From NCBI GenBank assembly GCA_038141925.1, contig JAYQJB010000002.1, positions 152,214-216,213 of the forward strand: a stretch of 64,000 nucleotides of DNA. The letters run 5' to 3'. The notes below the pieces were generated by a model. The model was not told the origin of the DNA. It did not search any database and saw nothing but the letters and a program-made list of their open reading frames with translations. The translations under genes and the position numbers were made by a program. This document shows positions 5,015-59,916 of this stretch, in pieces; position 1 is the first letter of the stretch; every line of letters begins with the position of its first letter. This stretch comes from Gammaproteobacteria bacterium. Its GTDB lineage: Bacteria; Pseudomonadota; Gammaproteobacteria; Magnimaribacterales; AG-339-G14.

Positions 5015-6120
5015 TTTAGTTCCCTCATTTCATAAACTGCTTTTTCTGAAATTTTATGATACTTAGAGACATTCTTTTTAAAATTTTCTTGAGACTCGAA
5101 TATCCTTTTTGATAAGGGATCTTCAGCAATCAACTCTTTTAAAAGTTCAGAAGTAATTTCTTTAAATTTTTTCAACACATCGTCAGGGAGTCTTTTTAGT
5201 ATCACCCCGTGAGTATTAACCAATGTTTCCAAAGCTTGATTATTCCTTGCAGTGTATTCATCTAACATATCCTGATTCACTGCTCTGCTTGCAGTTCTCA
5301 CTATTTCTTGAAGATCGGAAGGTAACGAAGCAAAAGCTTCTTTATTGATAATTACTTCTAAGGTGGGACCAGGTTCATGCCACCCTGGATAGTAGTAATA
5401 TTTTGCTGCTTGGTGTAGTCCAAAGGTCTGGTCATTATATGGCCCAATCCATTCTGCAGCATCTATAACTCCTGTTTGGAGATTCGTGAAGATTTCACTG
5501 CCGGGCATTAAAACTGCTTCCCCACCAGCTTCAGTCCAAACTTTTCCAGCCAAGCCTGGAATTCTCATTCTGGTTCCTTTGATATCCTCTAAAGAATTTA
5601 TTTCTTTGTTAAACCAGCCTGCCATTTGCACGCCAGTATTACCGCCTGCCAGAGGAATCAAATTGAATTTATCATAAGCTTCCTCCCAAAGTTCTAAGCC
5701 GCCTCCATAATGGAGCCAAGCATTCATCTCTTGAGCATTTAAGCCAAAGGGTAAAGCAGTAAAAAATTGTGCCGAAGGAGCTTTGCCAATCCAGTAATAA
5801 GATGCTCCATGGCCGATCTCAACTGTGCCTCGAGAAACAGCATCAAAAACCTCTAAGGCAGGAACGAGCTCTCCACTGCCATAAACTTTTATTTGTAGTC
5901 TGCCTGCTGACATTTTGTTTACTAATTTGGAAAGATTTTCAGCTCCCAAACCCACCCCAGGGTAATTTTTGGGCCAAGTAGTTACCATTCGCCAAGTGAA
6001 TGTCTTATTGGATTCTGTAAATGAAGTATTTGCTTCTTCTTGCTCACATGCAATGAAGAAAGTTAATACAAAAAGTAAAATTAAACTTTTTTTAAATTTG
6101 CGAAACTTAAAACCAGCCAT
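5011..6120 (-). CDS. TRAP substrate-binding protein (DctP/TakP-like, alpha-keto acid type), probable lipoprotein
   Basis: WRMVTTWP, GNTGVQMAGWFNKEI, MRIPGL, EWIGPYND, YYYPGWHEPG; lipobox-like FFIA-C. Confidence 0.9.
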   Translation of the reverse strand: MAGFKFRKFKKSLILLFVLTFFIACEQEEANTSFTESNKTFTWRMVTTWPKNYPGVGLGAENLSKLVNKMSAGRLQIKVYGSGELVPALEVFDAVSRGTVEIGHGASYYWIGKAPSAQFFTALPFGLNAQEMNAWLHYGGGLELWEEAYDKFNLIPLAGGNTGVQMAGWFNKEINSLEDIKGTRMRIPGLAGKVWTEAGGEAVLMPGSEIFTNLQTGVIDAAEWIGPYNDQTFGLHQAAKYYYYPGWHEPGPTLEVIINKEAFASLPSDLQEIVRTASRAVNQDMLDEYTARNNQALETLVNTHGVILKRLPDDVLKKFKEITSELLKELIAEDPLSKRIFESQENFKKNVSKYHKISEKAVYEMRELN

Positions 6121-8246
6121 TTTATTCCTTCTTTAGTGAAATTAACTTCAACTCTAGCATTGGCACCCTCTCCTTCATAGTTAAGAATGGTTCCTTCACC
6201 AAATACATCATGCGTTACCAAGTCGCCCAAAGAAAACTCTTCGCCTTTAAACTCAGTGCCGCCAACAATTTTGGGTACGAATCCTTTTGAACTTGGTGTT
6301 TCTGATGACATTCTAATCTCATACTTCAACTCGTCAGGAATTTCCTTTAAAAATCTAGATATTGGACTAAAACTTTCCATGCCATACATGTTTCTTACTT
6401 CTGCATAGGTTAAATATAGTCTTTCCATTGCCCTGGTGATACCAACGTAACAGAGCCTTCGTTCTTCTGCCAACTGCCTTGGATCTTCTAAAGATCTTTT
6501 GTGAGGAAATAAACCTTCTTCGCATCCAGCCATAAATACCAGTGGGAATTCTAAACCCTTCGCTGAATGGAGAGTCATCAATTGTATTGCATCTTCGTCA
6601 ATATCTGCCTGATTTTCGCCGGCATCTAAAGAGGCTTGATCAAGAAATATCTCCAATTCATTTCTATCGTCATCAGCGTCTTCGCCTATAGGATTAAAAC
6701 CAGAAGCAGCAGAAACAAGTTCCTCCAAATTCTCTTTTCTTGATCTGCCTTTTTCTCCAGGTTCTTTTGCGTGAAAATCTTTCAAACCAGTTGTGTTGAT
6801 AATTTCATCAAAAATTTCTCCAAGACCTTTGTTTTCAGTATCAGCTTTTAGCTGAGAAACTATTTCGATGAAATGAGATAAGGCTCTGGAAGATTTCTTT
6901 AAATTGTCTTTAGAAATAGATTCTGCCGCTTTCCATAAAGATATATTTTCAGCTCTAGCATGCTCACGCACGTTATCTAAAGTTTTTGCACCAATGCCTC
7001 TTGTAGGTACATTTACAATGCGTTCAAAAGCAGCGTCATTGTCAAAATCTACGAGTAATTTTGAGTAACTAAGGGCATTTTTAATCTCCATTCTTTCGTA
7101 GAATCTTACTCCGCCATAAATTCTATAAGGCAGCTCTGCCCTTAAAATACTATCCTCCAAAATACGGGATTGGGCATTTGATCTATACAAAATTGCTACA
7201 TCGTTAAGAGATCTACCCTCGTCTATCCAGTTTTTTATAATATCGACAATAAAGCTTGCCTCATCTCTTTCGTTGAAAGCGCGATAAATTTTTAAAGGCT
7301 CACCTTCTTTATTTTCCGACCAAAGTTTTTTGCCTAATCTTTCGGGATTATTTGCAATAACTGCATTAGCAGAGGAGAGAATATTTTTTGTGGATCTATA
7401 GTTTTGTTCAAGCTTAATGGTTTTCACTTTCTTAAAATCTTTTTGAAACCTTTTGATGTTTGCACTTTTTGCCCCCCTCCAGCTGTAAATTGATTGATCA
7501 TCATCTCCAACAACCGTCATAAAACTTTTTTTTCCTAAAAGTTTTTTTAATAAAAGATATTGAATTTCATTGGTATCTTGAAATTCATCAACCAAAATAT
7601 GTTCAAACCTATTCTGATAGTGCTCTAAAATTGCCTTGTTATTGGAAAGCAATTCAAAAGACCTCAAGAGGATTTCGGCGAAATCAACCAATCCTTCTTG
7701 ATCACAAACCTTTTGGTACTCGTTCATGATATCGACCATTTTTTCTTCAACAAAAGAAGCACTGGACTTTATTTTTGCTTTTCTTCTGCCTTCTTCTTTC
7801 TGATTGTTAATAAACCATTGTGCTTGAGAGGGCTGCCAGGTTGCATCATCTAATTCTAAAGATTTTATAACTCTCTTTATCACCCTATTCTGATCTTCTG
7901 AATCTAAAATAGTAAAGCTTCTTGGCAAGCCAGCTTCTTCCCAATGTCTTCTTAACATCCTATGAAATAAAGAGTGAAAAGTTCCACACCACATCTGATT
8001 TAGTTGTTCGCCAAGAATGTTTTCTATGCGACCTCTCATTTCTTTTGCTGCCTTGTTAGTAAAGGTAACAGTTAATAAAGACATGGGATTTAGGTTGTGA
8101 ACCTTGCACAGCCAAGCAACTTTATGAGTGATAACTCGGGTTTTTCCAGAGCCAGCACCTGCAAGAATCAAAGAAAATTGAGATCCGTCTGATACAGCTT
8201 CTCTCTGAGGAGAATTTAGATCATCCAATATATAAGATACATCCAT
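6081..8246 (-). CDS. uvrD: DNA helicase II
   Basis: AGAGSGKT, VDEFQDTN, VGDDDQSIYSWRGA, QNYRS, MTLHSAKGLEFP, EERRLCYVGITRA. Confidence 0.96.
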   Translation of the reverse strand: MDVSYILDDLNSPQREAVSDGSQFSLILAGAGSGKTRVITHKVAWLCKVHNLNPMSLLTVTFTNKAAKEMRGRIENILGEQLNQMWCGTFHSLFHRMLRRHWEEAGLPRSFTILDSEDQNRVIKRVIKSLELDDATWQPSQAQWFINNQKEEGRRKAKIKSSASFVEEKMVDIMNEYQKVCDQEGLVDFAEILLRSFELLSNNKAILEHYQNRFEHILVDEFQDTNEIQYLLLKKLLGKKSFMTVVGDDDQSIYSWRGAKSANIKRFQKDFKKVKTIKLEQNYRSTKNILSSANAVIANNPERLGKKLWSENKEGEPLKIYRAFNERDEASFIVDIIKNWIDEGRSLNDVAILYRSNAQSRILEDSILRAELPYRIYGGVRFYERMEIKNALSYSKLLVDFDNDAAFERIVNVPTRGIGAKTLDNVREHARAENISLWKAAESISKDNLKKSSRALSHFIEIVSQLKADTENKGLGEIFDEIINTTGLKDFHAKEPGEKGRSRKENLEELVSAASGFNPIGEDADDDRNELEIFLDQASLDAGENQADIDEDAIQLMTLHSAKGLEFPLVFMAGCEEGLFPHKRSLEDPRQLAEERRLCYVGITRAMERLYLTYAEVRNMYGMESFSPISRFLKEIPDELKYEIRMSSETPSSKGFVPKIVGGTEFKGEEFSLGDLVTHDVFGEGTILNYEGEGANARVEVNFTKEGIKWLVLSFANLKKV

Positions 8247-46757: not shown

Positions 46758-47957
46758 CTAGTTTTTAAAACGCTTGCCTCTTTCTTTTGCTAATTTAAAG
46801 GCAGCATTGGTTTCAGCTTCAACCTCATCACGATGTTGTTGTCTTAACTCAGCATATTCTGCAGCCCACCAGCGTTTGGTAACTTGGGGAAAAGTTCCCA
46901 TTCTGTTCACACTTGCATTAGCTCCGCGATCGCGACCTTGCTCATAGCCTGCAGCACCAACATGATCAACATTTGATTTGCCAAAAGGAATAAGATCGCC
47001 TTCCATTTTAGGAATTAAAAAATAAGGCATTGAAACTCTTGTTTCTCCTTCAGGAATCAAAGTTGTGTTAACGCGATGAAGAGTTGCGGAATATTTTCCC
47101 TCGCTCAAATGCATTAAAGTACCGCCAGTATTTACTATCACTGATCCAGGAATCACAGGAACATGGTAATCTCCAGGTGCAGTTCTACAGGTAACAGGAG
47201 CGTCAATCCAATTGCCCTCAGCGGCAACTACTTGCAAGCCAGGCTTGTCGTTTATTAGCAATGCTATGAAAGGAGGTCCATCGATATGCGCCCCTACTTT
47301 ATTGCTTTTAAATTTTTTGTATTCGTCTATGATTTTTTGTTTATCTTCTTCTGCGTAAGCAGATAAGCTGTAGTTATGATTCAAGCTGGCAGCAAGATCA
47401 GGATCTTTAAAATCAAAATATTCATGAAATGCCGAAACATCCTGACCTAGAGACTCAACTATTGCCTCGCCTAGCAAATGAGTCAGGCGATGATAACGCC
47501 CATTTAAGTCATCTATTAGAGGCTTGAAACCTGGGAAAGATTTAGCATCCGGCCAAGTATTAGGTCCTCGAAAAAGACGTCGATGGATTGGCTGAGTCTT
47601 GTCATCGTATTCGCACAAAGGTTCTTGCTCAAAAGCATATTGAAAAGCCTCAATGACTTGCCCAAAATTGCTAACAGCCGGGTTGGGCAGGCTGTAACCT
47701 CTAAAATAAGGTGTTTTAGCTATATAGGCGGTTTTCTTTAATTCTCTGGAAGATTCAAAAAAACCTCTCACCTCTTTAAAAGCACCTTGTTGAAACTCAT
47801 CAGAGAATCCAGGTGCATTCGTCAAAACCATAAAGCCAAATTCAGAAAGAGCGTAAGAAAGATCATCAAAGAATTTTTCTGGATTTGCTTCTTTATCGAG
47901 CCAATCAACTTTAGGGAGTTCTAGATTATTTTTTTGGTTTTTTGTAACTGCCGACAT
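46758..47957 (-). CDS. Isopenicillin N synthase-family 2OG-Fe(II) oxygenase
   Basis: FRGY, GPNTWP, H-x-D (AHID), PGLQV, ATLHRV, RVS. Confidence 0.85.
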   Translation of the reverse strand: MSAVTKNQKNNLELPKVDWLDKEANPEKFFDDLSYALSEFGFMVLTNAPGFSDEFQQGAFKEVRGFFESSRELKKTAYIAKTPYFRGYSLPNPAVSNFGQVIEAFQYAFEQEPLCEYDDKTQPIHRRLFRGPNTWPDAKSFPGFKPLIDDLNGRYHRLTHLLGEAIVESLGQDVSAFHEYFDFKDPDLAASLNHNYSLSAYAEEDKQKIIDEYKKFKSNKVGAHIDGPPFIALLINDKPGLQVVAAEGNWIDAPVTCRTAPGDYHVPVIPGSVIVNTGGTLMHLSEGKYSATLHRVNTTLIPEGETRVSMPYFLIPKMEGDLIPFGKSNVDHVGAAGYEQGRDRGANASVNRMGTFPQVTKRWWAAEYAELRQQHRDEVEAETNAAFKLAKERGKRFKN

Positions 47958-48018
47958 ACTTATCCCATTCGATGAAAATCAATTTAATTCTAAACAAATT
48001 ATCAGTTTTTAAGCAAGC

Positions 48019-48897
48019 TTAAGGTCTTTTGTAGGCAGGGTCATAGGCATTCATTATATCTTGGGCAATGATATGCAAGTCAGTCTGAAAACCCGTATTG
48101 TAAGTATTGTTAGTCAAATTAACTTTATAGATGCTGTTCAGCCAAATTAAGGTTCCAGCATTGATGATGATATCCCCTTGGTGACCTTTCTCATCTGTGT
48201 ACAGCGAAAGTTGCTTTCGCTCCGCGAAATGCAATAGTGTCTAAAAGCAAATTATCCTGCCACATTTGAGTCAACTTAAGAGAAGCTAGTCCGGTAGGAA
48301 TAGAAAAAAGGTGGTGTTAGGAAATCTAACTCTCAAGGCGTCTAAAAGGGTATCGTTACTGAAATCATTAACCCACCAATCAAACAAAGCATTGATGTCT
48401 GCATAGCCATTTTCTGTTGCCCTTTGTGGCCAGGTCTCTGGAAAATCAATTTGCGGTATTGCTATAAATACGATTATGTTTGGGTTATTCGTCAAAGCAT
48501 AATTTATCCATTCTTCGTATCCATCAAGAAGAGTATTTGGATCGTTTGGATCATCATAAGGCGTAGAGACCATGCCAAACATATCTATGCTGCCCCTATC
48601 TAAGACGGACTTTACTTCAGCACTTGCACTGGCTTCATTCCATAAATCCAATGGTCTGCCATTGTCACCGCCGCGAAAAACGACATTAGCATTGTGAGCG
48701 GTGTAGCCAGCATCAACAGCTAATTCGCCAAGCTTTTCCGCATAAGGTCTGAAAAAACTATTCCCCATCAACATCATGTTGAGGCCTCCCAATGAAGGAG
48801 GGTTAGGTTGTGGAGCTGGATTTCCTCCACCAGAACCCGAGCCTCCACAAGAGAGCACAGATATTGCTAGCAGAAGAGAAAAAGTAAAGCTCTTCAT
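48019..48897 (-). CDS. Hypothetical lipoprotein, SGNH-like (indels)
   Basis: Lipobox VLS-C, Gly/Pro linker, MGNSFF block, later D..GH. Confidence 0.65.
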
Positions 48898-48913
48898 CTA
48901 CGGAAAGAAAAAG

Positions 48914-50083
48914 TTAAATACTTAAATCTTCTAAATTGTAGTCGATTAAATCCTGACGGGCTTTTTCATCCCAGAGGTAAGTTATACCGCTTTTGAGAAA
49001 GGGTTTGTATTCATAGGGTTTTTCGTCTTTATATTTTGCTTTCCTAGCTTCAATTGCATAACCAATAGATTTGGACCTTCTGTTTATGGTTTCTTCATCA
49101 AAGACTTGTGCCTCGCTGTGAATGCCGCCTCCTTTGGTACCTAAAACGGATGATCTTTTATGAAAGCCAAAGTTTACTGTTACTCTTTTTTCAAAACCGC
49201 AGTTAGGAAACGAGCCATGCAAAAGCTGTCTGTTGCACATCACAACATCGCCTGGATTGCAGATCATGGGAACAGCGCCTTTTAATCTTTCACTTCCTGC
49301 TTCAGCAACCAGCTTTTTAATATCAATTTTGCCATCTTTGTGAGTACCAGGCAGAACCCATACTCCGTTTACGGCGGTACTGCCATAAACCTGTGCCATG
49401 AAATTAAAACCATGGATATCTTCATTAAAGTCTTCGCTGTCCCAATGAGTTACCCCATCTTGATGCCAAGAAACTGCAGCCCCCACTCCAGGTTCTTTAA
49501 TGAATAAAGCTTCGTTGAATGGAGCAAAATCTTCTCCGTTGATGGATTCTGCAACTTGTAAAAGTTTTGGATGAGCATAAGTTCGAAGGCAGGCATCGGA
49601 AAATTGCAAGGTGCCTAATAAAATAACCGGTACAGCTTGAGGGGCATCAGCTGCGGCTTCAGGCTCAAAAAGTTTTACTTGGTGCCTGCCATTCGCCAAC
49701 TCGGTTCCGCCTAGAGGATCGCCTAAAGGTTTTGACCAAACTAAAGTTAATGCCTTGGAATCTGCGTTAAAAGCAGGCTTACCGTTAGAGTCTAAGGTTG
49801 TCTCTGGTCCAGCAGGAAAATTTTCTCGCAATTGCTCAAGATCTTCTTTGATGTCTTCAAGTTCATTGGCGTCAATTACATTTTCAAATATGTAAAAACC
49901 ATTTTTTGAATATGCTTCTCGAATTTCTTTAGAGAGTTTGCCGTTTTCATCAAATTTAATAGGACCTCTATTTCCTAACTCCAAAGCCCTTTTTTCTCCA
50001 TCTAGCAAATAAGCTTCCATCTCATCTGCATTTTCCCCATAGTAAGCTGCACAAGCTTTTATTGAACGAGTTGAATCAATCAT
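48914..50083 (-). CDS. Phytanoyl-CoA dioxygenase (PhyH) family protein
   Basis: FIKEPG..WHQD, PGTH, LHGSFPN, R-x-T. Confidence 0.85.
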   Translation of the reverse strand: MIDSTRSIKACAAYYGENADEMEAYLLDGEKRALELGNRGPIKFDENGKLSKEIREAYSKNGFYIFENVIDANELEDIKEDLEQLRENFPAGPETTLDSNGKPAFNADSKALTLVWSKPLGDPLGGTELANGRHQVKLFEPEAAADAPQAVPVILLGTLQFSDACLRTYAHPKLLQVAESINGEDFAPFNEALFIKEPGVGAAVSWHQDGVTHWDSEDFNEDIHGFNFMAQVYGSTAVNGVWVLPGTHKDGKIDIKKLVAEAGSERLKGAVPMICNPGDVVMCNRQLLHGSFPNCGFEKRVTVNFGFHKRSSVLGTKGGGIHSEAQVFDEETINRRSKSIGYAIEARKAKYKDEKPYEYKPFLKSGITYLWDEKARQDLIDYNLEDLSI

Positions 50084-50129
50084 AGTTGTATCTTTTTGTT
50101 TTAATAAATTAATTTCGAGAATTGTATCT

Positions 50130-51590
50130 CTAAATGGCTCCAGATTGAATGATTCTTATATAAGATCTGATTCCATTTAGAAAATCTTCTTTATTGATGC
50201 GTTCATCAATTCCATGTAAACCGCTTAGCTCGCTTGCAGATAATGGAAAAGGGTTAAATCGGTATGAATTTTTAGCTGCTTTGCCATAATGTTTTGAGTC
50301 AGAACCGCCTACCATTAAGCCCGGAGCTACAATAATGTCGCCATAAACTTCTCTCACTGAATTACTGATTACCCTGTATCCATCAGTGTCCCAATCAGAC
50401 ACAGAGCTTGCCAAAGTTCCTGCGCTAAGTTTTTTCACTTCGATATTTTCGTTGCCAATTAAATCATTAACAAAGTTAATAATGGTTTCTGGGTTGTCTC
50501 TTGGATGGAGTCTAAAATTAACTGTTCCTTTCGCCTCGCTTGCAAGCACATTAATTCGATTACTGGCCGATAACATTGTTGGGGCTGTAGTGGTTCTTAT
50601 TACAGCATTCATGGTTGGGCTATTGGAAAGAAAACTGTTTATTACTGGCTCAAATAACCATAAGTTCGCAAATAAAATTTTATATTGAAAAGGCATTTGC
50701 TTGCTGACTTCATCAAAAAGGCCTAGAGAAATACCTTCCAGCTTTCCAGGAATGGGATTATCCTCAAGCTTCAGTAAAGCTTCAGCCAAATATCCAATAG
50801 ATGAATTAGAGGAAGGCATGGATGAGTGGCCGCCTTCTGCTTTACCAATAACCTCAATGGTTAAACTGCCTTTTTCAGCGACATTAATAACTGCAACAGG
50901 TTTATCGACTCCAGGAATGATGTCTTTGAGCAAGAAAGAACCTTCGTCTAAAGTCCATTCAAGTTCAACTCCTTGATTGATAAGAAATTCAGCAACTTTT
51001 CCTGCGCCCCTTCTGCCACCAATTTCTTCATCATGGCCAAAACTCAAATAAATTGTTCTGTTGGGGACAAAGTCTTGAGTTAACAAATAATCAACGGCTT
51101 CCAAAATTGCGATGACACCACTTTTATCATCTAGAGCACCTCTGCCCCAGACATATTCATCATCGATTTTTCCTGAGAAAGGATTTTCTTGCCAGATTGA
51201 GTTTGCATCCTCTCTAACAGGAACCACATCATAATGACCTGTCAGCAAAATAGGATCTAATCTTGGATCTTCCCCTTTCCATTTTAATAAAAGCGTCTCG
51301 CCGAGGTATTTTTTTTCTAAATTTTCAAAAACTTGAAAGTATTCTTCTTCGAGCCAAGAAAGGAATCTTTGAAACTCATCGTAATCAAATTTTTCATAAT
51401 CGGGATGAGATATGGTTTCAAACTGTATTGATCTAGAAAGGTTATTAATTGATTTTGTTTCATCAAAAATTATTGGCTCACTAATTTGAGCTTGTTAAGC
51501 ATCTGGCTGATGCAAATAAGCTCTAAGCAAAACGATTAAAACCAGTATCAAAAATATAGCAAAAGCATATTTAAGAATTTTGATTACCAT
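50130..51590 (-). CDS. M20 family peptidase/amidohydrolase (carboxypeptidase S / PM20D1-like); in-frame TAA near 51495
   Basis: GHYDVVP, WGRGALDDK, HDEEIGG, DEG, GGHSS, GGSD, HGIDER; N-terminal TM in frame from ATG 51590. Confidence 0.88.
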
Positions 51591-51595
51591 AATTA

Positions 51596-51931
51596 TTATT
51601 TATCTCTCAATAACATTAATTTTATGTCTCCTTTGCAAACATAACTTAAGTAAATGAGATAGAAAGCTAAATATGGCGCTCCAAGAAAAAAAGCTCCAAT
51701 CCCAAGCGCGATTCCTTGCAAAGAGAAATTGTTTCGCCAACAAGTCCAAAAAGCTGATAATAAAAGAAAGGCTAAAAAATCTGTATTAAATTGTCCTTGC
51801 CAACTCATACTTAGGATTTCACCAAAAAAAGATGGGAATAAAGTGAAAAGTCCATCGCTTTGAATGACAGGAATTGTATAAACAATCACCATTAAAGCTA
51901 TAAATCCGAGAAAAAATCTAAAAAGCATCAT
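51596..51931 (-). CDS. Hypothetical membrane protein
   Basis: 111 aa with WQGQFNTDF..W..WR motif, 3-4 TM. Confidence 0.7.
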   Translation of the reverse strand: MMLFRFFLGFIALMVIVYTIPVIQSDGLFTLFPSFFGEILSMSWQGQFNTDFLAFLLLSAFWTCWRNNFSLQGIALGIGAFFLGAPYLAFYLIYLSYVCKGDIKLMLLRDK

Positions 51932-51999
51932 AATTAATTCCTTAAGTTTGTTATTTCGAGAAAAGTCTCCATTGCTGAACTCTATCAGTTGCGCTTAAA

Positions 52000-52970
52000 A
52001 CGCCATAACCAGGATCCATATCTCCAGCTACAGAAACATGAACACTTTCTTCATTTATGTCTCCACAAAATAAAACATCATAATTTCCGTTCTCTCTAGA
52101 TTCTCTTGATGGACCTTCACCAGGTTTTGGTGCATCGCTTAAATGGGTTTGGATGAAGAAATAAATTTCTGCTGCAGCTTTCACCTTCATCACCTGAACC
52201 CATAACCCACATTTCGTTGTAACAAAAATCCTCACCATACATATGATTCATCAACATATTAGATCTGTGCACATTTTTAGTGTTAATTGGTGCCATAAAA
52301 AATGGAGCTACCCATGTATCTAATTTTTCATCAAGAATAGGCTTGTTGTCAGCTGGTTGCTCAGGTCCAGTAAAACCATCTGAAAGTGCAAATGGGTTAG
52401 CTAAAACTGCAAAAAGTTCAGGCTTTTCTTTTAGGGCTGCCATAGTGGCACCAAGGGATGCAGCAGTACCTCCAGAAAATTCACCATTCATTCCTCTAAC
52501 TCTGCCTCTAACATTTGAAGAGGGTTTACCATATCTATTTTATAACTTCATTTTGTAAAAATAGAACGCCTAAATCAAAAGGAATACTATCAAATCCACA
52601 TGAAAAAACTATTCTTGATCCAGATTCTTTTGCCACATCACTCAGCTCATTAATTTTTTCATGCATCCATCCAGGTTCACCACATAAATCGACATAATCT
52701 GTTCCAGATTTTGCACATGCTGCAACGATATCATTGCCATATAGCTGATATGGACCAACAGTGGTTAAAACACATTTTGTTTTTGAAACCATTTCTTCAA
52801 TGCTTGCAATATCATTACTATCAACCACTAATAGCCCCGTATCTTCAGGAACATTTTTAGATGCAGCAACTGATTCTAGTTTTTCGAGATTTCTACCCGC
52901 TAAAGCCCAACTAATTTCAGAATTATTGCTATATTTTTCTACTAGATATTCAACAACTAATTTACCAGTT
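52000..52970 (-). pseudogene. Saccharopine dehydrogenase-like / trans-acting enoyl reductase, internal fragment
   Basis: TGKLVVEYL, WALAGR, TTVGPYQLYG, YVDLCGE, SCGFDSIPFDLG, SGGT, DPGYG; lacks the N-terminal GATGF start and the C-terminus after DPGYG. Confidence 0.75.
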
Positions 52971-54090
52971 CGGAATCAATTACGCCAAGCAAAGTACCTA
53001 ATGAGAGCATGAAATTTTCGATACCTAATTCTATTTCTGTTGAGCGGACAGCTATCGATGGCTTCGAAGATTGCTTGAAATCACCTGCCTGAAAAGCCTC
53101 GATGACGCTGTTTGCTAAGCTATATCCATACGCGCGCGCTTTATCATGACTTGGTTTCGTGAGCATTTTTTCTAAAACAGGATCGTATATTGGATCGGTT
53201 GGCCCTGAAGTCATTAAGCCTCCTATGTTTCCTGTAAGCCATAAAGTGGTTCCGCCAAGTCCAGTTCTAATTAGCTGGTCGTCATAGTAAATACCCTCGC
53301 TTATGCCTCTTCTTAAGTAGCCTGCAACATCAGCAGTTAATTCTAGATTTTTATCCCATGTAAGTTCGACATGAATTCCAAAGTTAATTAGCGAGCCAAT
53401 AATTGAGCCATCAGGTCTATTAAACAAAATTGCTCTGATGTCATCGTCTATCACGATGGGCTTTCTTTTGTCTTTGATAGGCGTGAGAGGGTTAGTCGGA
53501 ATTAAAGCCAAGCTCATTTCTGCAGGCTCCAAGTTATCTATAGCTACTTTTAAGGAGCGTATGAAAGCTGTTTTGAGCTGCTCCATATAACCTTCATCAA
53601 CGCCGCTCTTTAAAAAGCCCGGGCCCCAAAGACCTTGGGTATCTGGGCCCTCATGATTATGAGTGGCATGCACCATGATGTAATCTAGCCCCCACTCTGT
53701 CGGAACATCCTCACGCACACTGAGTACAAATTTTCTCATTAGCCCTATAGTGTCAGCACTAATTATTCCTACCCGAGTCTGACCGTCATCGATCACAGCA
53801 GTTACCGCCATGAGGTCATCTTTAACTCCTTGCGCAGCTCGTTTATTTTGAAACCCTGCCATCCATACGGCATCAAATTTGTTGTTGCCATTCACATCAG
53901 TCCATCTATCAATATCCGAATCAAATTGAGCGTCGTTATTTATATCTTCCCATTCATCGATTAGCTCAGGAGTAATTGAAAGCTCAGCAAACCCAACTTT
54001 AAATTCGTTTGCATAAATTTGAGAAGCCAAAAAAATACTTAACATTATAAAAATGTATAGCTTGTATTTTGTAAAACTGTTTAATATCAA
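52957..54090 (-). CDS. Neutral/alkaline ceramidase-like protein, apparently C-terminally truncated
   Basis: VGFAELSITP, WMAGF, GVKDDL, HATHNHEGPDT.GLWG, NFGIHVE, TAD; ends where it meets the saccharopine dehydrogenase fragment. Confidence 0.7.
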   Translation of the reverse strand: MILNSFTKYKLYIFIMLSIFLASQIYANEFKVGFAELSITPELIDEWEDINNDAQFDSDIDRWTDVNGNNKFDAVWMAGFQNKRAAQGVKDDLMAVTAVIDDGQTRVGIISADTIGLMRKFVLSVREDVPTEWGLDYIMVHATHNHEGPDTQGLWGPGFLKSGVDEGYMEQLKTAFIRSLKVAIDNLEPAEMSLALIPTNPLTPIKDKRKPIVIDDDIRAILFNRPDGSIIGSLINFGIHVELTWDKNLELTADVAGYLRRGISEGIYYDDQLIRTGLGGTTLWLTGNIGGLMTSGPTDPIYDPVLEKMLTKPSHDKARAYGYSLANSVIEAFQAGDFKQSSKPSIAVRSTEIELGIENFMLSLGTLLGVIDSELVN

Positions 54091-54573
54091 AAATTACTTC
54101 TCTTCTTTTTTTGTTTAAAGAGTAAGGTTGTCACCATTAAAATTGAGATTATAAGCAAAGCAAATTTAATGAGAGTTAGAGATGCTTTTAATAATAAAAG
54201 AGTGTTGGTAATGAGCAAATTCAAAAGTACTACTTGATTTATACCTTCGGCGAGATCAACAAAAATTAAGATAAGAGGAATAAATATCAATTTCTTGTTG
54301 GAAGAGAGTCTGGATACTAAACCAACAAAAAAAAAGTCCATAGGCTAAAGGATAGATCACATCTAAAGTTAATGTAGCGATGGTGTGCATACGCAACATT
54401 TCAGCGCTCATGGAATTAATGATATTTGTAACTTCAAGCGGATAATAAAATGCATCCAAAAATTCAAAACCAAATTTTTTTGAAATAAATGGAAACAATG
54501 CCGTACAAATCAATGATATTGCGAAGAGCAAGGAAAGAAGTAAATTGGTTTTTAACTGATCCAAGATTTTCAT
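54087..54573 (-). CDS. Hypothetical membrane protein (frameshift near 54330)
   Basis: H...T.TLDVIYPLAYG then DLAE motif, typical of a 4-TM family. Confidence 0.65.
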
Positions 54574-54595
54574 AGAAAATTATTTAAACCTGCGC

Positions 54596-54624
54596 TCAAA
54601 TATATTCCGCCGTGACTGACTTGG
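54596..54624 (-). repeat. glmS 3'-end remnant (att-like copy D)
   Basis: Minus strand CC AAG TCA GTC ACG GCG GAA TA = K-S-V-T-A-E; 54596-54616 matches 55306-55326 at 17/21. Confidence 0.7.
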
Positions 54625-54644
54625 AAAAAACAGAAATGTGATTT

Positions 54645-54839
54645 TTATCCATAATTATCGGAGAAATATTTTTCTCTATCCTCTTTATTCATGCCAACTG
54701 TGTCATTCATAAAATTATTTCTGTCTTCTCTAGATTTAAAGACCCATATGCAAACCGTGTCCTGTGAATGATAGATTGCTTTTAGTTCATCATCTATTTC
54801 ACAGATTTCTTTTGGGATTTCTGTCTTAATACAAATCAA
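54645..54839 (-). CDS. 64-aa hypothetical protein (cassette gene)
   Basis: GAGGA RBS plus TTG start; CEIDDELKAIYHS..CIWVF..R.DRN.F. Confidence 0.65.
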   Translation of the reverse strand: MICIKTEIPKEICEIDDELKAIYHSQDTVCIWVFKSREDRNNFMNDTVGMNKEDREKYFSDNYG

Positions 54840-54848
54840 CGCTTCCTC

Positions 54849-54863
54849 TTACTCTACTGTAAC
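54849..54863 (-). repeat. glmS 3'-end remnant (att-like copy C)
   Basis: Minus strand GTT ACA GTA GAG TAA = V-T-V-E-stop in a 57-bp intergenic spacer. Confidence 0.7.
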
Positions 54864-54896
54864 GATTATAAAAATACTTGTGCTTATCTTTCATTG

Positions 54897-55283
54897 TTAT
54901 CCAAATAATGTGTGATGAAAAAATCTACCTGGCATCAAAGTAAATGCACCAGCAATTAAAAGTGCCCCAACATAGACACCAATCATCGAATACATATGTG
55001 CGAACTTATATCTTTCTATTCTTGTTGTTTTAAATTTCTTTATATTCCAAATTGAATAAATCAATGACCCAATAGTCCATGGTATTAAAAGATGAATTAA
55101 TGAATATTGACCGGGATTAATTGCTTGAATAAATATTGCTGTCAAAGAAACTATTATTAAAAAAGTTACCCAGATTCGTCCGAGTATTCTATGTTGCTTT
55201 GTGCCCTTTTTAGTTAGGAGGATGTAAAGACCAAGTGGTACTGCAAGTAATGCTAACGTTGCATGAGCATAAATTATTTGCAT
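54897..55283 (-). CDS. DUF2306 family membrane protein (cassette gene)
   Basis: H..LA..LG..KKGT..HRILGRIWV, S.IHLL, H...M...Y.GAL..AGAFTLMPGR. Confidence 0.85.
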   Translation of the reverse strand: MQIIYAHATLALLAVPLGLYILLTKKGTKQHRILGRIWVTFLIIVSLTAIFIQAINPGQYSLIHLLIPWTIGSLIYSIWNIKKFKTTRIERYKFAHMYSMIGVYVGALLIAGAFTLMPGRFFHHTLFG

Positions 55284-55311
55284 TTTTTATGTTGCAATTC
55301 TCTGTTCAAAC

Positions 55312-55353
55312 TTACTCCACCGTGACCGAGTTGAATTGTTTGTACTAGTTTTT
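55312..55353. repeat. att-like copy B: glmS 3'-end remnant plus left 26-bp inverted arm
   Basis: Minus strand TCG GTC ACG GTG GAG TAA = S-V-T-V-E-stop (55312-55329); arm 55328-55353 is the reverse complement of 56722-56747 at 23/26. Confidence 0.85.
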
Positions 55354-55357
55354 TTTC

Positions 55358-55747
55358 TTAGTCATCGTATTTTTTGTTTTGATGGGATTACACCTTCACC
55401 CCACCCCTTGGATCTTTAACATCATTTACATATCTTGGAATTAAATGAATATGAACATGCAATTGTCTGACCATCAATTGTCTGACCACTTACCGAACCA
55501 CAATTAACACCAATATTGTAACCCTGTGGTTTTTTAAATTTTTTATCCAAATAATCTTTTGTTTCAAATATCAATTCATTAAACCCTTTTAACTCCTCTT
55601 CAGTAGAGTCAAAATAACTTGAATAAACTCTTTTTGGAATTATTAATGAATGTCCCTCACTAACAGGGAAGTTATCTAAAATCACAAATCCAATAGAATT
55701 CTCAAAAAAGATGTTCTTGTCATCAAAAAAAAAGGACTTTCATTCAT
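55358..55747 (-). CDS. HIT family hydrolase (indels, 15-bp duplication)
   Basis: D.FPVSEGHSLIIPKR, GYNIGVN.G..SGQTI, HVHIHLIPRY..D..DPRGGV across frames. Confidence 0.85.
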
Positions 55748-56687
55748 TATACTTTTTTTTCTTCAAGTTTAGACCTGTGAATTTTTAAATATTTCTTCAT
55801 ACCTTCTGTGACTGAGATTTTAAATCTCCAGATAGACCGAGTTTTTTAAAATTCTCTTCATTTAAAGTATTGGAGACGATTATCTCTCCCGTATCTTGAA
55901 AAGAAATCAAATGTCTATGAAAAAGAGAATCGAAAAGAGGTGATAATAAAATTCCATTTTCTACATCCAATCTTTCCTCATCATTGGACTCAGACCAACT
56001 CACAATGTGTGATGAAATTAAAATGGATTTAATATTAATACCTGTTATCGGACATTTCCCTCCCCATTTTTCAATAATTTGTTGTCTGTAATATCCTTGA
56101 CCAACTCTAGAAGTAATAACCCTTTTCTTTGAGTTGTATTTGGTTTTTTATAATTTCTCTTTCTTTTATTTGAAACAACTCCTTGTTTTGAAATTTTAGA
56201 CCTAGTGGTCTTACCGATAGAAGAGGGAATTTTTTCCATAAATAGATGTCAATCAGATCTTCATTTTGAGTGTAATCATCATAATCAATATTTTGATAGA
56301 TCATGTGAACAGGTTTAGATGTTCCTTCCTCGTATGAATCATAGGTTAACCTTCCACAATATATAAAGGGTTGAGTAACATTTTTTATTCTTGGGAAAAT
56401 TCTTACAAAAAGATGTGGAATTAAATCACCGTTTACAATTTCCTGTATTTTTGGACTTTCTTGGGTTGTTTGAGAATCCCAATGAAAAAAATCACCTTCA
56501 AAAAAGTCATCAAAATGAAATCTTGTCTCTTTCCCCTTCTTTTCTAAATCAACAAAAAATAAAAAGAGTTAGAGTTTTTTAAATTATAAATTCCTTCCTA
56601 ACCAAAGAGATCTTTGGTTGGTCTAATAAGATTGATAAATCTTTTTTGAATATTTTCACCGACTGCTAATTTATTGTGAGGATCCAT
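55747..56687 (-). CDS. DUF3427-like N-terminal domain fused to an HNH endonuclease (several indels)
   Basis: LFFVDLEK..DDFF..FHWDSQ..HLFVR..TQPFIYCG then SRVGQGYYRQ..W.GKCPITG..LISSHIVSW..ERLDVENGILLSP.FD.LF..HLISF. Confidence 0.75.
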
Positions 56688-56721
56688 TATCTAAAAATTA
56701 CAAATTCGTTCATAATTTAAT

Positions 56722-56759
56722 AAAAACTAGTACATACAATACTACTCAACAGTAACAGA
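56722..56759. repeat. att-like copy A: right 26-bp inverted arm plus functional glmS end
   Basis: aaaaactagtacatacaatactactc (56722-56747) overlaps the glmS stop; minus strand TCT GTT ACT GTT GAG TAG. Confidence 0.85.
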
Positions 56760-58569
56760 CTTAGCTAAATTTCTTGGCTGATCGATGTCGGTTCCTCTAA
56801 GCAGGGCTACTTCGTAAGAAAGAATCTGTAGGGGTACGGTGTAAAGAATCGGCGTCAGTAAGAAATCGCATTCTGGCAGATTGATCAGATTTTTTGCTTT
56901 CAATTTCATATTGCCCGCAGCATTTCCAATGACAAACAATTTGCCCCCTCTTGCTTTTACTTCCTCTAAATTAGAAACCAATTTTTCTGCCAATTCATTT
57001 TCAGGCGCTAAGGCAATAACAGGCATATTCTTGTCAATTAAAGCAAGCGGTCCATGTTTGAGTTCTCCTGCAGGATAAGCTTCAGCATGAATATAAGAAA
57101 TTTCTTTGAGTTTTAGAGAGCCTTCTTTAGCTATTGGATAAAAAATTCCTCTTCCCAAAAATAAAGCGTTATCTTTTTTAGCTATTTCTTTAGCGATTTT
57201 TATAATCTTGGGTTTTAACTCCAATGTCTCAGTTATTTTCTCAGGCAAAGCTCGTAAAGCGCCAACAACTCTCCCCCTTAATCTTGGATTTAGGTTTCTT
57301 GCTTTTGCTAAAGACAAAGTAAGCAACATCAAGGCAGTTAATTGCGTCGTAAAAGCTTTGGTTGAGGCAACGCCTATTTCAGGTCCTGCATTTGTTAAAA
57401 GAACAAAATCAGATTCTCGGGCCAGCGAGCTTGTGGGCACGTTGCAAATGGTAAGCGAACCCAAATAGTTTCTTTCTTTGGCATATCTCAATGCGCCCAA
57501 AGTATCTGCAGTCTCTCCCGATTGTGAAATAGTCAATAACAAAGTATTTTTATCGACGTACGGATTTTTGTAGCGGTATTCGCTCGCATAATCTATTTGG
57601 GTTGGGAGATTTGCTATTGCTGAAAACCAATTTGCTGCCACTCTGCCAGCATGCAGACTTGTGCCTGCAGCAACGATTTGAATTCTTTCTACTTTTGAAA
57701 GTAACTCATTGGAACCTTCTCCAAAAATATTTTCGAGCACATCTTCGCCCCCAATCCTGCCGTCTAGAGTATTTAAAATTGCGGTTGGCTGCTCATAAAT
57801 TTCTTTTTCCATGAAATGGCGATACCCATTTTTGCCCATCGCCTCGCTTGGAGACATCGATAGTGGTAATTTTTCTAATGGCCCTTTTTTGGTTCTTGTC
57901 TAAAATCTTGTACTCTTTAGCAGATACCTCTGCGACGTCCCCATCTTCTAAGAAGACAAATTCATTGGTTAGATCAGCAAGCGCCAAAGGGTCGGATGCA
58001 GCAAACATGCCTGAATCAGATTGGCCCAAAAGAAGCGGCGATTTATTTCTCATGAGATAAAAATGCGATTCATTTTTTAAATCAATGGCAGCAACAGCGT
58101 AAGCGCCCTCAAGTTTTTCTTTCAACAAAGACATGGCTCCTAGCATCTCAATATCTTGGTTTAAGAAAAAATCCAGTTGATGCGCTATCAACTCTGAGTC
58201 GGTTTGGGAGTTAAATTGGTAACCTTTTTTAATGAGTTGTTCTTTCAAGGCAACATAATTTTCAATGATGCCGTTGTGCACGATAAACACCCTGTTATTA
58301 GAAACGTGTGGATGGGCGTTCTCTTCTGATGGCTTGCCGTGGGTAGCCCACCTTGTGTGAGCAATACCAATTTTGCCCTTGGGCTTTTCTTTAACCATTT
58401 TGGATTCAAGCTTTTTGACTTTGCCTAAAGATCTAAGGTGTGCAATATCGTCTATTTGATGCAAAGCCACTCCCGCAGAGTCGTAACCTCGATATTCCAT
58501 CTTGTACAAGCCCTGCACTAAGAGTTTGCCAACGCTTTTTTCAGTAGCTGCTGCAATTATTCCGCACAT
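56742..58569 (-). CDS. glmS: Glutamine--fructose-6-phosphate aminotransferase (frameshift near 57850)
   Basis: MCGI, EYRGYDSAG, HTRWATHG, HNGIIEN, SQSGETAD, VASTKAFT, ELKHGPLAL, DQPRNLAKSVTVE. Confidence 0.97.
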
Positions 58570-59916
58570 TATTTTTTCTTTATATTCCTTTGTCTTGATC
58601 TGCCCAAGGCCAGTCTTTCAGCAGGGACGTCGCTCGTAACAACCGAGCCAGCACCAATCATACTATTTTGTCCGATTTTTATTGGAGCAATCAAAGAGCT
58701 GTTGGAGCCAATAAAAGCACCTTTGCCCACTTTGGTTTTGTTTTTATTTTTACCGTCGTAATTTACAAAAATAGTCCCCGCTCCAACATTAACATTTTCT
58801 GCAACTTGGCCATCGCCAATATAAGCCAAGTGCTCGGCTTTTGTGCCTTTACCGATTTTGCTGCGTTTTACTTCAACAAAGTTTCCAATCTCGGAGTTTT
58901 CTTCAAGGTGAGCATCGGGTCCGATGTGCGCATATGGGCCGGCAGTGACATTTTTTTCTAATATTGCATTTTCAATGAAAGTGTAAGGTTCAATTCTTGA
59001 GCCGTCGCCTATCTTGGAGTTTCTTATGATTGCGCCAGGGCCAATAATGACGTTTTTTCCGATTTCAACTTTTCCTTCAAAGATGCAGTTGATATCGATA
59101 CTACTGCCTTTTTGAATTTTGACCTCGCCTCTAAAATCCACTCTGGCCGGATCAGAGATGATGACTCCTTTTTTTAAAAACTCCTTGGCTTTCAACAGTT
59201 GATAGTTTCGCTCGAGTTGATTGAGCTCTTCTAGATTGTTTGCTCCCAAAACTTCCTCCTTGCTATCAAGTTTGACAGCTTTAACTGGTATTTTGTTCTC
59301 ATTTGCTAAGCTAACAATATCGGTTAAATAATATTCTTTTGCAGCATTTTTATTGTTCAAGCCCTTTATAAGCTCATCAAGCTTATTTGAAGCAACTGCC
59401 ATAATTCCGGAATTTACTTCGGTGATTTTCTTTTGCTCTTTTGATGCATCTTTCTCTTCAACAATTCCAAGCACCTTGCCCCCAGAACTTCTAATGATTC
59501 TGCCGTAGCCTTTCGGCGTTTGTTGCTCAAATGAAAGCAGGGCGAGACTGCTTTTTCCAGCTGTTTTTAACTAAGTTGTTCATCGTAGAGCTTTTCACTA
59601 AGGGCACATCGCCATAAAGAATAAGCGCTATCGACCCAGCTCTTAGGCCTTTTAAAGATTGTTTTACCGCATGTCCTGTGCCCAATTGTTTTGCTTGTTT
59701 GGACCATTTACTATTTTTAGGAACAGATACAGATGCTTTTACCAAAGAGGCTTGGTCGCCAACAACAATGTGAGGCTGACAACTTTTTAATTCGAGAGAA
59801 GTATCTAAAACATGCTGCAGCAAAGCTTTTCCGGCAACTTGTTGCAATACTTTTGGCGAAGCAGATTGCATTCTCTTGCCTTTGCCAGCAGCTAAAATAA
59901 TTGCATCGATTTTCAT
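58569..59916 (-). CDS. glmU: Bifunctional UDP-GlcNAc pyrophosphorylase/acetyltransferase (frameshift near 59540)
   Basis: ILAAGKGKRM, QLGTGHAV, LYGDVP, EYYLTD, GNFVEVK, hexapeptide repeats. Confidence 0.95.

Follow-up and report, generated by a model that had tools for sequence, protein, structure and literature searches.

The DNA examined here is a stretch of 64 kb (the window) from a gammaproteobacterial genome, and its subject is an array of small gene cassettes lying directly behind the 3′ end of glmS. The window corresponds to positions 152214–216213 of contig C2 in genome G000, and positions given without further indication are window coordinates. The assembly of G000 comprises 1,225,982 bases, has a GC content of 34–35% and is 79% complete; the bacterium is presumably of marine or estuarine origin. 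Related genomes carry labels of the form Gnnn, and the loci or contigs fetched for comparison carry labels of the form Lnnn.

Copies of the glmS end and the cassettes between them

Direct reading of the minus strand, on which glmS lies, revealed four copies of the glmS end, at the places where a previous interpretation of this DNA (the sequence-only reading) had put them. The functional end of the gene, an SVTVE-stop (TCTGTTACTGTTGAGTAG), occupies positions 56742–56759 and can be regarded as an attL-type junction, with the probable crossover dinucleotide AC at 56752–56753. Core copy B, also SVTVE-stop, was found at 55312–55329, where cassettes 1 and 2 meet (AC at 55322–55323), and core copy C, VTVE-stop, at 54849–54863, the junction of cassettes 2 and 3. 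Core copy D, at about 54603–54624, is a degenerate KSVTAE that is not directly followed by a stop codon and has two mismatches to the motif GTNACNGTNGARTAR. Three exact matches to this motif were observed in the window, all of them on the glmS strand, against 0.01 expected, and none of 100 shuffles reached three; when the whole genome was scanned, these were the only matches. At the level of copy D, with two mismatches allowed, the 10 matches found do not differ significantly from the 8.9 expected. Copy D was instead confirmed by homology, since the segment formed by the 64-aa cassette and this copy aligns with the first cassette of locus L047 and its core (position 542) with 88.6% identity over 237 nt.

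The cassettes delimited by these copies are all oriented on the minus strand. Cassette 1 begins directly after the glmS stop codon with the left inverted-repeat arm (P′ arm, 56719–56741), which is followed by a T-run. Its cargo (55357–56718) consists of a gene with an HNH_2 domain (about 55797–56687) and a HIT-family gene (about 55395–55748), both frameshifted, and it closes with the right inverted-repeat arm (P arm, 55330–55356), which is preceded by an A-run and includes the 7-nt linker CAACTCG. The terminal inverted repeats of this cassette extend over 29 nt and are 86% complementary (arm score 20/24). Cassette 2 (54864–55311) encodes a DUF2306 membrane protein (54897–55283); it has kept the left arm and lost the right one, and about 50 nt are missing from its right end relative to L047. 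Cassette 3 (54625–54848) contains an ORF of 64 aa (54645–54839) that belongs to no Pfam family. This gene content is the one previously described, with the qualification that the HNH and HIT genes are present as frameshifted fragments. The array also proved to be longer than proposed, because a fourth unit, located at about 54103–54601, lies beyond its former left edge. This unit encodes a small membrane protein that is split into two ORFs (54256–54573 and 54087–54341) by a 1-nt indel at 54327, where the contigs of three public runs lack one base. A search for a right arm matching cassette 4 found none, and beyond this cassette no further core, with up to three mismatches, stood out from chance matches.

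To the left of the fourth unit, the comparison with the cassette-free relatives L038 and L043 revealed a decayed remnant of what would be the oldest glmS end, GAGAAGTAA, at 54094–54102 on the minus strand. It is followed by the conserved flank TTTTTGAT, which directly adjoins glmS in those two relatives. The first gene of this older flank (52957–54090, minus strand) encodes a protein of 377 aa with weak similarity to a ceramidase N-terminal domain (E 3e-4, below the Pfam cut-off), and this ceramidase-like gene is the one found directly 3′ of glmS in the cassette-free relatives.

The frameshifts in the HNH gene, the HIT gene, the membrane ORF and glmS are probably assembly errors, because metagenome contigs from three to four public runs differ from the assembly by indels of 1–2 nt at those places. 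In the case of glmS, the assembly presents two ORFs (57793–58569 and 56742–57857), and the public-run contigs lack one base at 57848–57853. The glmU gene is likewise split into two ORFs in the assembly (58569–59474 and 59527–59916).

Variation at the locus and anatomy of the junctions

We observed that in the 50 genomes of the family the motif matches cluster beside glmS and on its strand, while a reversed-pattern control gave 0–2 matches per genome. Clusters of two to six copies downstream of glmS were counted manually in at least 25 of these genomes. The regions downstream of glmS in 40 relatives hold from zero to five cassettes, L038 and L043 representing empty sites, and the cassettes differ in number, content and order. 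This variability supports the earlier proposal that the 3′ end of glmS is a variable capture site. The DUF2306 and 64-aa cassettes of the window recur in L047, which belongs to another genus, in the opposite relative order. The former is the third cassette of L047 (94% identity) and the latter the first (88.6%), whereas the adjacent glmS genes are only 72.6% identical; the comparison of these values indicates that the units have moved horizontally. Furthermore, contigs from two runs of two different studies join position 55312 to position 56743, skipping exactly the 1430 bp of cassette 1. Other joints (55345 to 56730, 55359 to 56728, and a step back of 37 nt) appeared in single contigs each.

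Across the arrays, the units measure 186–6047 bp, with a median of 835 bp (71 intervals), and 72 of the 82 array ORFs lie on the glmS strand. A Pfam analysis of 79 array ORFs showed a cargo rich in restriction-modification and nuclease families (N6_N4_Mtase, DNA_methylase, MvaI_BcnI, DpnI, SAD_SRA, NucS_C, HNH_4, T5orf172 and YhcG_C), accompanied by HIT, DUF2306, PMSR, SelR and methyltransferases. Among the 25 families listed of the 55 detected, there was no recombinase or transposase family. The claim that the units of the window contain no integrase stands: the array has no recombinase, and in the assembly, which is 79% complete, XerC and XerD are the only ones of the genome.

The alignment of the junctions revealed a common layout, in which a cassette-specific inverted repeat is followed by 10 nt, an invariant central AC, another 10 nt and the second inverted repeat. 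The internal cores read arm, YTAYTC, N, GTN, AC, NGT, N, GARTAR, arm, so that the AC lies exactly midway between the mirror-image boxes YTAYTC and GARTAR. In each unit one arm adjoins the stop codon and leads into a T-run; the other comes after an A-run, and 7 nt separate it from the next core. The sequences of the arms differ from cassette to cassette; nevertheless, in 41 of the 71 intervals the two ends of the unit are more complementary to each other than the 95th percentile of non-self pairings. In the window, an arm has been lost from each of cassettes 2–4.

This anatomy bears on the proposal that each copy once served as the end of glmS. It holds from the central AC rightwards, where the sequence (ACN GTN GAR TAR) always encodes (T)VE-stop. 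It does not hold for the left part, since in the internal copies the Lys-Ser codons are not kept and this part mirrors GARTAR; it comes from the cassette's own arm and is free of coding constraint. The more general idea that the repeats are remnants of attachment sites restoring glmS agrees well with the structure of the junctions, given that direct repeats of the target-gene end are present at each boundary and that the gene is restored.

To locate the exchange point, the neighbours of 119 exact sites were grouped into families by single linkage, and the agreement at each core position was calculated. Junctions that share the right neighbour and have different left neighbours agree with values of 0.67 and 0.64 at positions 6 and 9 (background 0.32), and at position 3 the agreement is only 0.32 (background 0.27). 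Conversely, for junctions with a common left neighbour other than glmS, the agreement is found at position 3 (0.55), and the values at positions 6 and 9 are only 0.27 and 0.25. Bases on the left thus track the left cassette and bases on the right track the right one, which points to an exchange at the central AC. These comparisons are indicative of a crossover at this dinucleotide, with the switch falling between core positions 3 and 6. In the sites of serine recombinases the crossover covers 2 bp that are non-palindromic and lie in the middle of a dyad, whereas tyrosine recombinases need an identical overlap of 6–8 bp. By the comparative evidence, the glmS cores show dyad symmetry around a non-palindromic dinucleotide.

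A few exact matches to the motif lie inside other coding regions. Two of them (L060:310 and L061:270) are inside glmU, 2065 nt upstream of the glmS end, a match shared by three genomes of one genus; the other two (L071:301 and L045:8120) correspond to the VTVE-stop end of another conserved protein. These four matches, chance or convergent, were left out of the statistics. In L076 (G041:C16), two sites at oriented positions 1141 and 2660 have GAGAC in place of GTNAC, which changes positions 1–2 and keeps the central AC. This change resembles the phage-type attachment cores (attP) with ATTAC or ACTAC of some of the recombinases described below.

Large serine recombinases at the glmS end

Viral contigs were scanned for KSVTVE-stop, and most of the 36 loci obtained were ordinary glmS ends. 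A different case was L095, a viral contig of 7.4 kb in which KSVTVE-stop lies between complementary arms, antisense within a gene of 733 aa with the domains Resolvase, Recombinase and Zn_ribbon_recom, that is, a large serine recombinase (LSR). From its sequence, this arrangement is the predicted junction of a circular form. At 5087–6377, this free element also carries a second serine recombinase gene (227 aa, with Resolvase and a partial Recombinase domain) followed by an ORF of 201 aa. A gene with a bPH_2 domain is present on it as well.

When viral contigs were scanned with this one protein, L095 itself was the only match, and a profile had to be used. At E ≤ 1e-10 the LSR has 79 relatives, mostly of about 720 aa and located on short marine contigs. 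Near residue 600 their alignment keeps the sequence N-x-S-T-V-T, which corresponds to the core read in antisense. Each of the 26 full-length genes examined contains, at the same place 301–400 nt before its end, a [V/I/T]TVE-stop core flanked by arms and with AC at positions 4–5; 14 of these cores are exact, and 12 have one to three mismatches (for example, TGA as the stop codon, or a first codon ATT or ACT).

The position of the core within the gene is reflected in the integrated copies. Of the six relatives on genome contigs, five break off at about residue 606, directly against a genuine glmS end and in convergent orientation; these are in metagenome-assembled genomes labelled Flavobacteriales, Polaribacter, Flavobacteriaceae and Chitinophagales, and the sixth locus is a free form. 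Among 80 metagenome loci, 29 LSR genes are full length, 14 stop at residues 603–606 beside glmS, three more lie beside glmS and end at residues 574–581, and 28 are cut by the end of the contig. The remaining six, none of them beside glmS, include one that ends at residue 606 and five others. Because the gene is cut at residues 603–606 where it meets glmS, the comparison argues that this family integrates at the glmS end and that integration splits the LSR gene.

A larger element with a recombinase and the same ends, as envisaged in the sequence-only reading, was also found in the order to which the window belongs. When 266 genomes of this order were searched with the LSR profile, 21 had matches, and in G170 the first position of the array is occupied by a whole LSR element with matching arms. 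The order there is glmS core, an ORF of 116 aa, cargo, an LSR of 556 aa, a second core and two small cassettes. The LSR has the domains Resolvase, Recombinase and Zn_ribbon, runs in the same direction as glmS and stops 31 nt short of the core; the 116-aa ORF, which is homologous to the C-terminal domain of LSRs, lies after the core on the glmS side in a different phase. A single reading frame split across the G170 site was considered and rejected, given that the LSR and the 116-aa ORF are separate and their phases differ. As these are separate genes, two layouts can be distinguished: an antisense, fused one (type A) and a sense one formed by two genes (type B).

Fragments of both types are present in the arrays. 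Type-A fragments, antisense and to the left of the core, were detected in L064, L200, L201 and L203 (E 1e-15 to 1e-17), and type-B C-domain ORFs, which match the first half of PF07508, follow the glmS stop codon in L033, L034, L202 and L204–L206. From the LSR C-terminal fragments that abut the cores, several cassettes are recognisable as decayed LSR elements.

Tyrosine integrases were seen in a different setting. In L073 (G041:C31) and L075 (G060:C12), two of the 50 family genomes, an integrase of 411–438 aa is followed by a resolvase of about 200 aa. In G041 this pair lies directly after the 3′ end of guaA (GMP_synt_C), and it represents a separate type of island.

Origin of the array and alternative explanations

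Taken together, these observations suggest that the array is probably an accretion site, comparable to the staphylococcal cassette chromosome (SCC), that grew through site-specific recombination at the final codons of glmS, with LSRs as the most likely catalysts. In this model, the element would be circular and its attP, some 60 bp long, would have 10 nt and then an inverted arm on each side of the AC, with (T)VE-stop encoded in the right half. Exchange at the central AC would place the right half of the element behind glmS, keeping the C-terminus of the enzyme, and would push the former glmS end downstream as a remnant. Repeated insertions would stack the units, the newest probably next to glmS. 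The four units of the window would then be LSR elements in decay, or else hitchers with no integrase that depend on an LSR in trans; SCC elements without ccr likewise rely on a recombinase supplied in trans. Many of the cassettes resemble recombinase-bearing elements in decay more than dedicated mini-cassettes. By extension from the relatives, such an LSR presumably made this particular array, and the cassettes of the window could still be able to move; that small cassettes are still being mobilised in trans is a tentative proposal, which we judge somewhat less probable than its opposite.

Several observations weigh against this model. The catalytic part of an LSR was detected in only three of the 266 genomes of the order (G170, G088 and G078), and the best-characterised LSRs, those of type A, come mostly from contigs of Bacteroidota. 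In G000 itself (79% complete) there was no PF00239 match, no match to the LSR profile at E ≤ 1e-5 and no LSR fragment, so its cassettes would be integrase-less units or remnants. Thirty of the 71 intervals, cassettes 2–4 of the window among them, do not have clearly matching arms, which suggests that much of the array may be fossil, and a single LSR is not expected to recognise all of the different arms. The crossover statistics depend on genomes that are related to one another and on grouping by single linkage, which makes them indicative only. The variant without cassette 1 retains the glmS-type bases to the right of the AC, and it therefore represents another arrangement of the locus, which falls short of proving excision in this strain; in addition, no circle junction appeared among the public-run contigs. 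Finally, after a first insertion the glmS end becomes an attL-type hybrid, a kind of target that canonical serine integrases avoid, although CcrAB is said to be more permissive in this respect.

The repeats could also have been produced by a tyrosine integrase of a phage, a satellite or a tycheposon-like element that cuts in the 3′ end of glmS, the cassettes being its remnants. Enzymes of this class commonly restore the 3′ end of their target gene and leave such repeats, and in another organism an element of 11.7 kb does lie between long identical repeats of the glmS end (L094, IMGVR_UViG_3300025809_001788; positions 297 and 12036). The L094 repeats extend at least 35 nt past the stop codon, so that it looks like an element of a different kind, and the contig also looks like an inverted-duplicate assembly. 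In the family of the window, nearly all of the 50 genomes have only two Xer-type recombinases of about 300 aa and no gene with a Resolvase domain; in G000 both of these tyrosine recombinases (PF00589) are encoded far from the array. The three additional integrases detected (G041:C31, G048:C14 and G060:C12) have no copy of the motif, with up to one mismatch, in the fetched stretches. As movers of the cassettes these third integrases were rejected, considering the absence of the motif nearby and the location of the G041 island at guaA. Moreover, core bases 3 and 6 segregate with opposite neighbours, which leaves no room for an identical overlap of 6–8 bp, and the recombinase pieces found inside the arrays are of the serine type. 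An origin by tyrosine integrase is thus improbable. We consider it even less probable that the host XerC and XerD proteins move the cassettes, as occurs with IMEX elements or with the dif modules of Acinetobacter plasmids. These are the only recombinases present throughout the family and the sites at the glmS junctions are palindromic with a central region, but the inner boxes YTAYTC/GARTAR are not of the Xer type, the arms vary among cassettes, and no dif-like XerC/XerD sites were found at the boundaries. The best dif-like site of the genome (C2:796988 of G000), with five mismatches to the consensus, is unlike the glmS core; its XerD-side arm is apparently intact.

Two other systems were considered and can be given very little weight. 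An integron-like system, with single-stranded cassette hairpins captured by an IntI-type enzyme, would account for the small and mostly co-oriented cassettes, and for arms that vary in sequence while keeping their complementarity, as attC sites do. This half of the analogy drawn in the sequence-only reading could not be upheld, since G000 has no third tyrosine recombinase, no attI or intI adjoins the array, and the 3′ ends of the cassettes carry no complete attC hairpin. In addition, the two arms are at opposite ends of the integrated unit, so that exchange would take place at the centre of the palindrome, whereas in attC it takes place at the edge. The least probable explanation is a Tn7-like transposition directed by TnsD/TniQ, or repeats originated by chance or by homologous recombination. 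glmS is the classic target of Tn7; however, the junctions fall within the last five codons of the gene and not downstream of it, the duplicated stretch measures 15–21 nt and shows wobble variation where Tn7 would leave a 5-bp duplication, and the arms differ in sequence from unit to unit. The 25 Pfam families listed of 55 include no transposase, and no search was aimed at tnsABCD. Chance is excluded by the motif statistics obtained in the window, in the genome and in the 50 family genomes.

The LSR model finds its closest parallel in SCC, and here the other half of the earlier analogy fitted well, given that the geometry of the sites and the recombinases of the relatives are of the large serine type, like CcrAB. 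SCC and SCCmec elements are moved by the large serine recombinases CcrAB or CcrC and insert at rlmH (orfX). As in SCC, the insertions at glmS fall within the 3′ end of a conserved housekeeping gene, whose reading frame they restore, direct repeats of the gene end are present at every boundary together with imperfect terminal inverted repeats, the units form tandem composite arrays that include recombinase-less members which would depend on a recombinase in trans, and the recombinases linked to the site are of the serine type. In contrast to SCC, the target is glmS, marine Gammaproteobacteria and Bacteroidota serve as hosts, the units are much smaller (median of 835 bp), the cargo is rich in restriction-modification and nuclease genes, the type-A attP lies inside the recombinase gene and the genome of the window has no LSR.

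The remaining comparisons are partial. Tn7 shares with these arrays the use of the same host gene as a safe harbour, and as a transposase-based element that inserts past the stop codon with a 5-bp duplication and conserved ends, it has none of its own features represented at the locus. Integron arrays, too, consist of small cassettes that are packed closely and mostly face the same way, with palindromic sites that vary and without a recombinase inside the cassettes; unlike them, the palindrome at glmS is split between the ends of the unit, exchange is at its centre, and IntI, attI and attC are absent. In SSV-type integrases, which are tyrosine recombinases of archaeal viruses with tRNA-gene targets, attP lies inside the integrase gene. 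Similarly, the attP of type-A LSRs is within the ORF, and of roughly 720 residues the integrated copies retain about 606; the differences are that the enzyme is a bacterial LSR and that attP is antisense to the gene. To our knowledge, an attP inside the recombinase gene is otherwise found only in these archaeal integrases. Tycheposons and the additive flexible genomic islands of marine bacteria (bioRxiv 10.1101/2020.12.28.424599; PMC10872708) represent a parallel in ecological terms and resemble the glmS arrays in being found in streamlined ocean bacteria, in their repeated site-specific insertion, in the remnants of the target end and in their many integrase-less units. They target tRNA genes and mostly use tyrosine recombinases (910 of 937; bioRxiv 10.1101/2020.12.28.424599), and they differ from the glmS arrays, where the target is the last codons of a protein gene and not a tRNA gene, and the geometry is of the serine type.

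A more specific form of the LSR model, which we put forward as a possibility with the odds slightly against it, is that these enzymes constitute a new LSR family that lands in the chromosome at the last codons of glmS, with an attP that mimics the glmS end inside or directly behind their own gene. In abundant, streamlined bacteria of the sea, such a family would drive an integron-like economy of tiny, integrase-less and often defence-related cassettes that are excised, exchanged and re-inserted in trans; integration may split off the C-terminal DNA-binding domain, and the cassettes may keep only the two attP arms. The literature search yielded no account of such arrays or of a serine recombinase that targets glmS, and papers behind paywalls or their supplements could hold one. 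If the LSR model is correct, it would explain in concrete terms how ocean bacteria with reduced genomes, devoid of the usual machinery of mobile elements, come to have a flexible genomic island, the last codons of glmS would join the short list of landing sites for serine recombinases in protein genes, and SCC-like stacking would occur outside the Firmicutes. A compact and defined attP/attB pair at a universally conserved sequence might also be useful as an integration tool, and, more speculatively, the split-gene layout suggests a built-in switch between the free and the integrated states.

The variable region of the chromosome is larger than the array and extends over about 46760–54098 of the window, where no copy of the core above chance was detected with up to three mismatches. 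In L041 (G013, of the same genus), glmS is followed almost directly by a homologue of the window gene at 46762–47923. L038 and L043 do not have this homologue, and carry the ceramidase-like gene.

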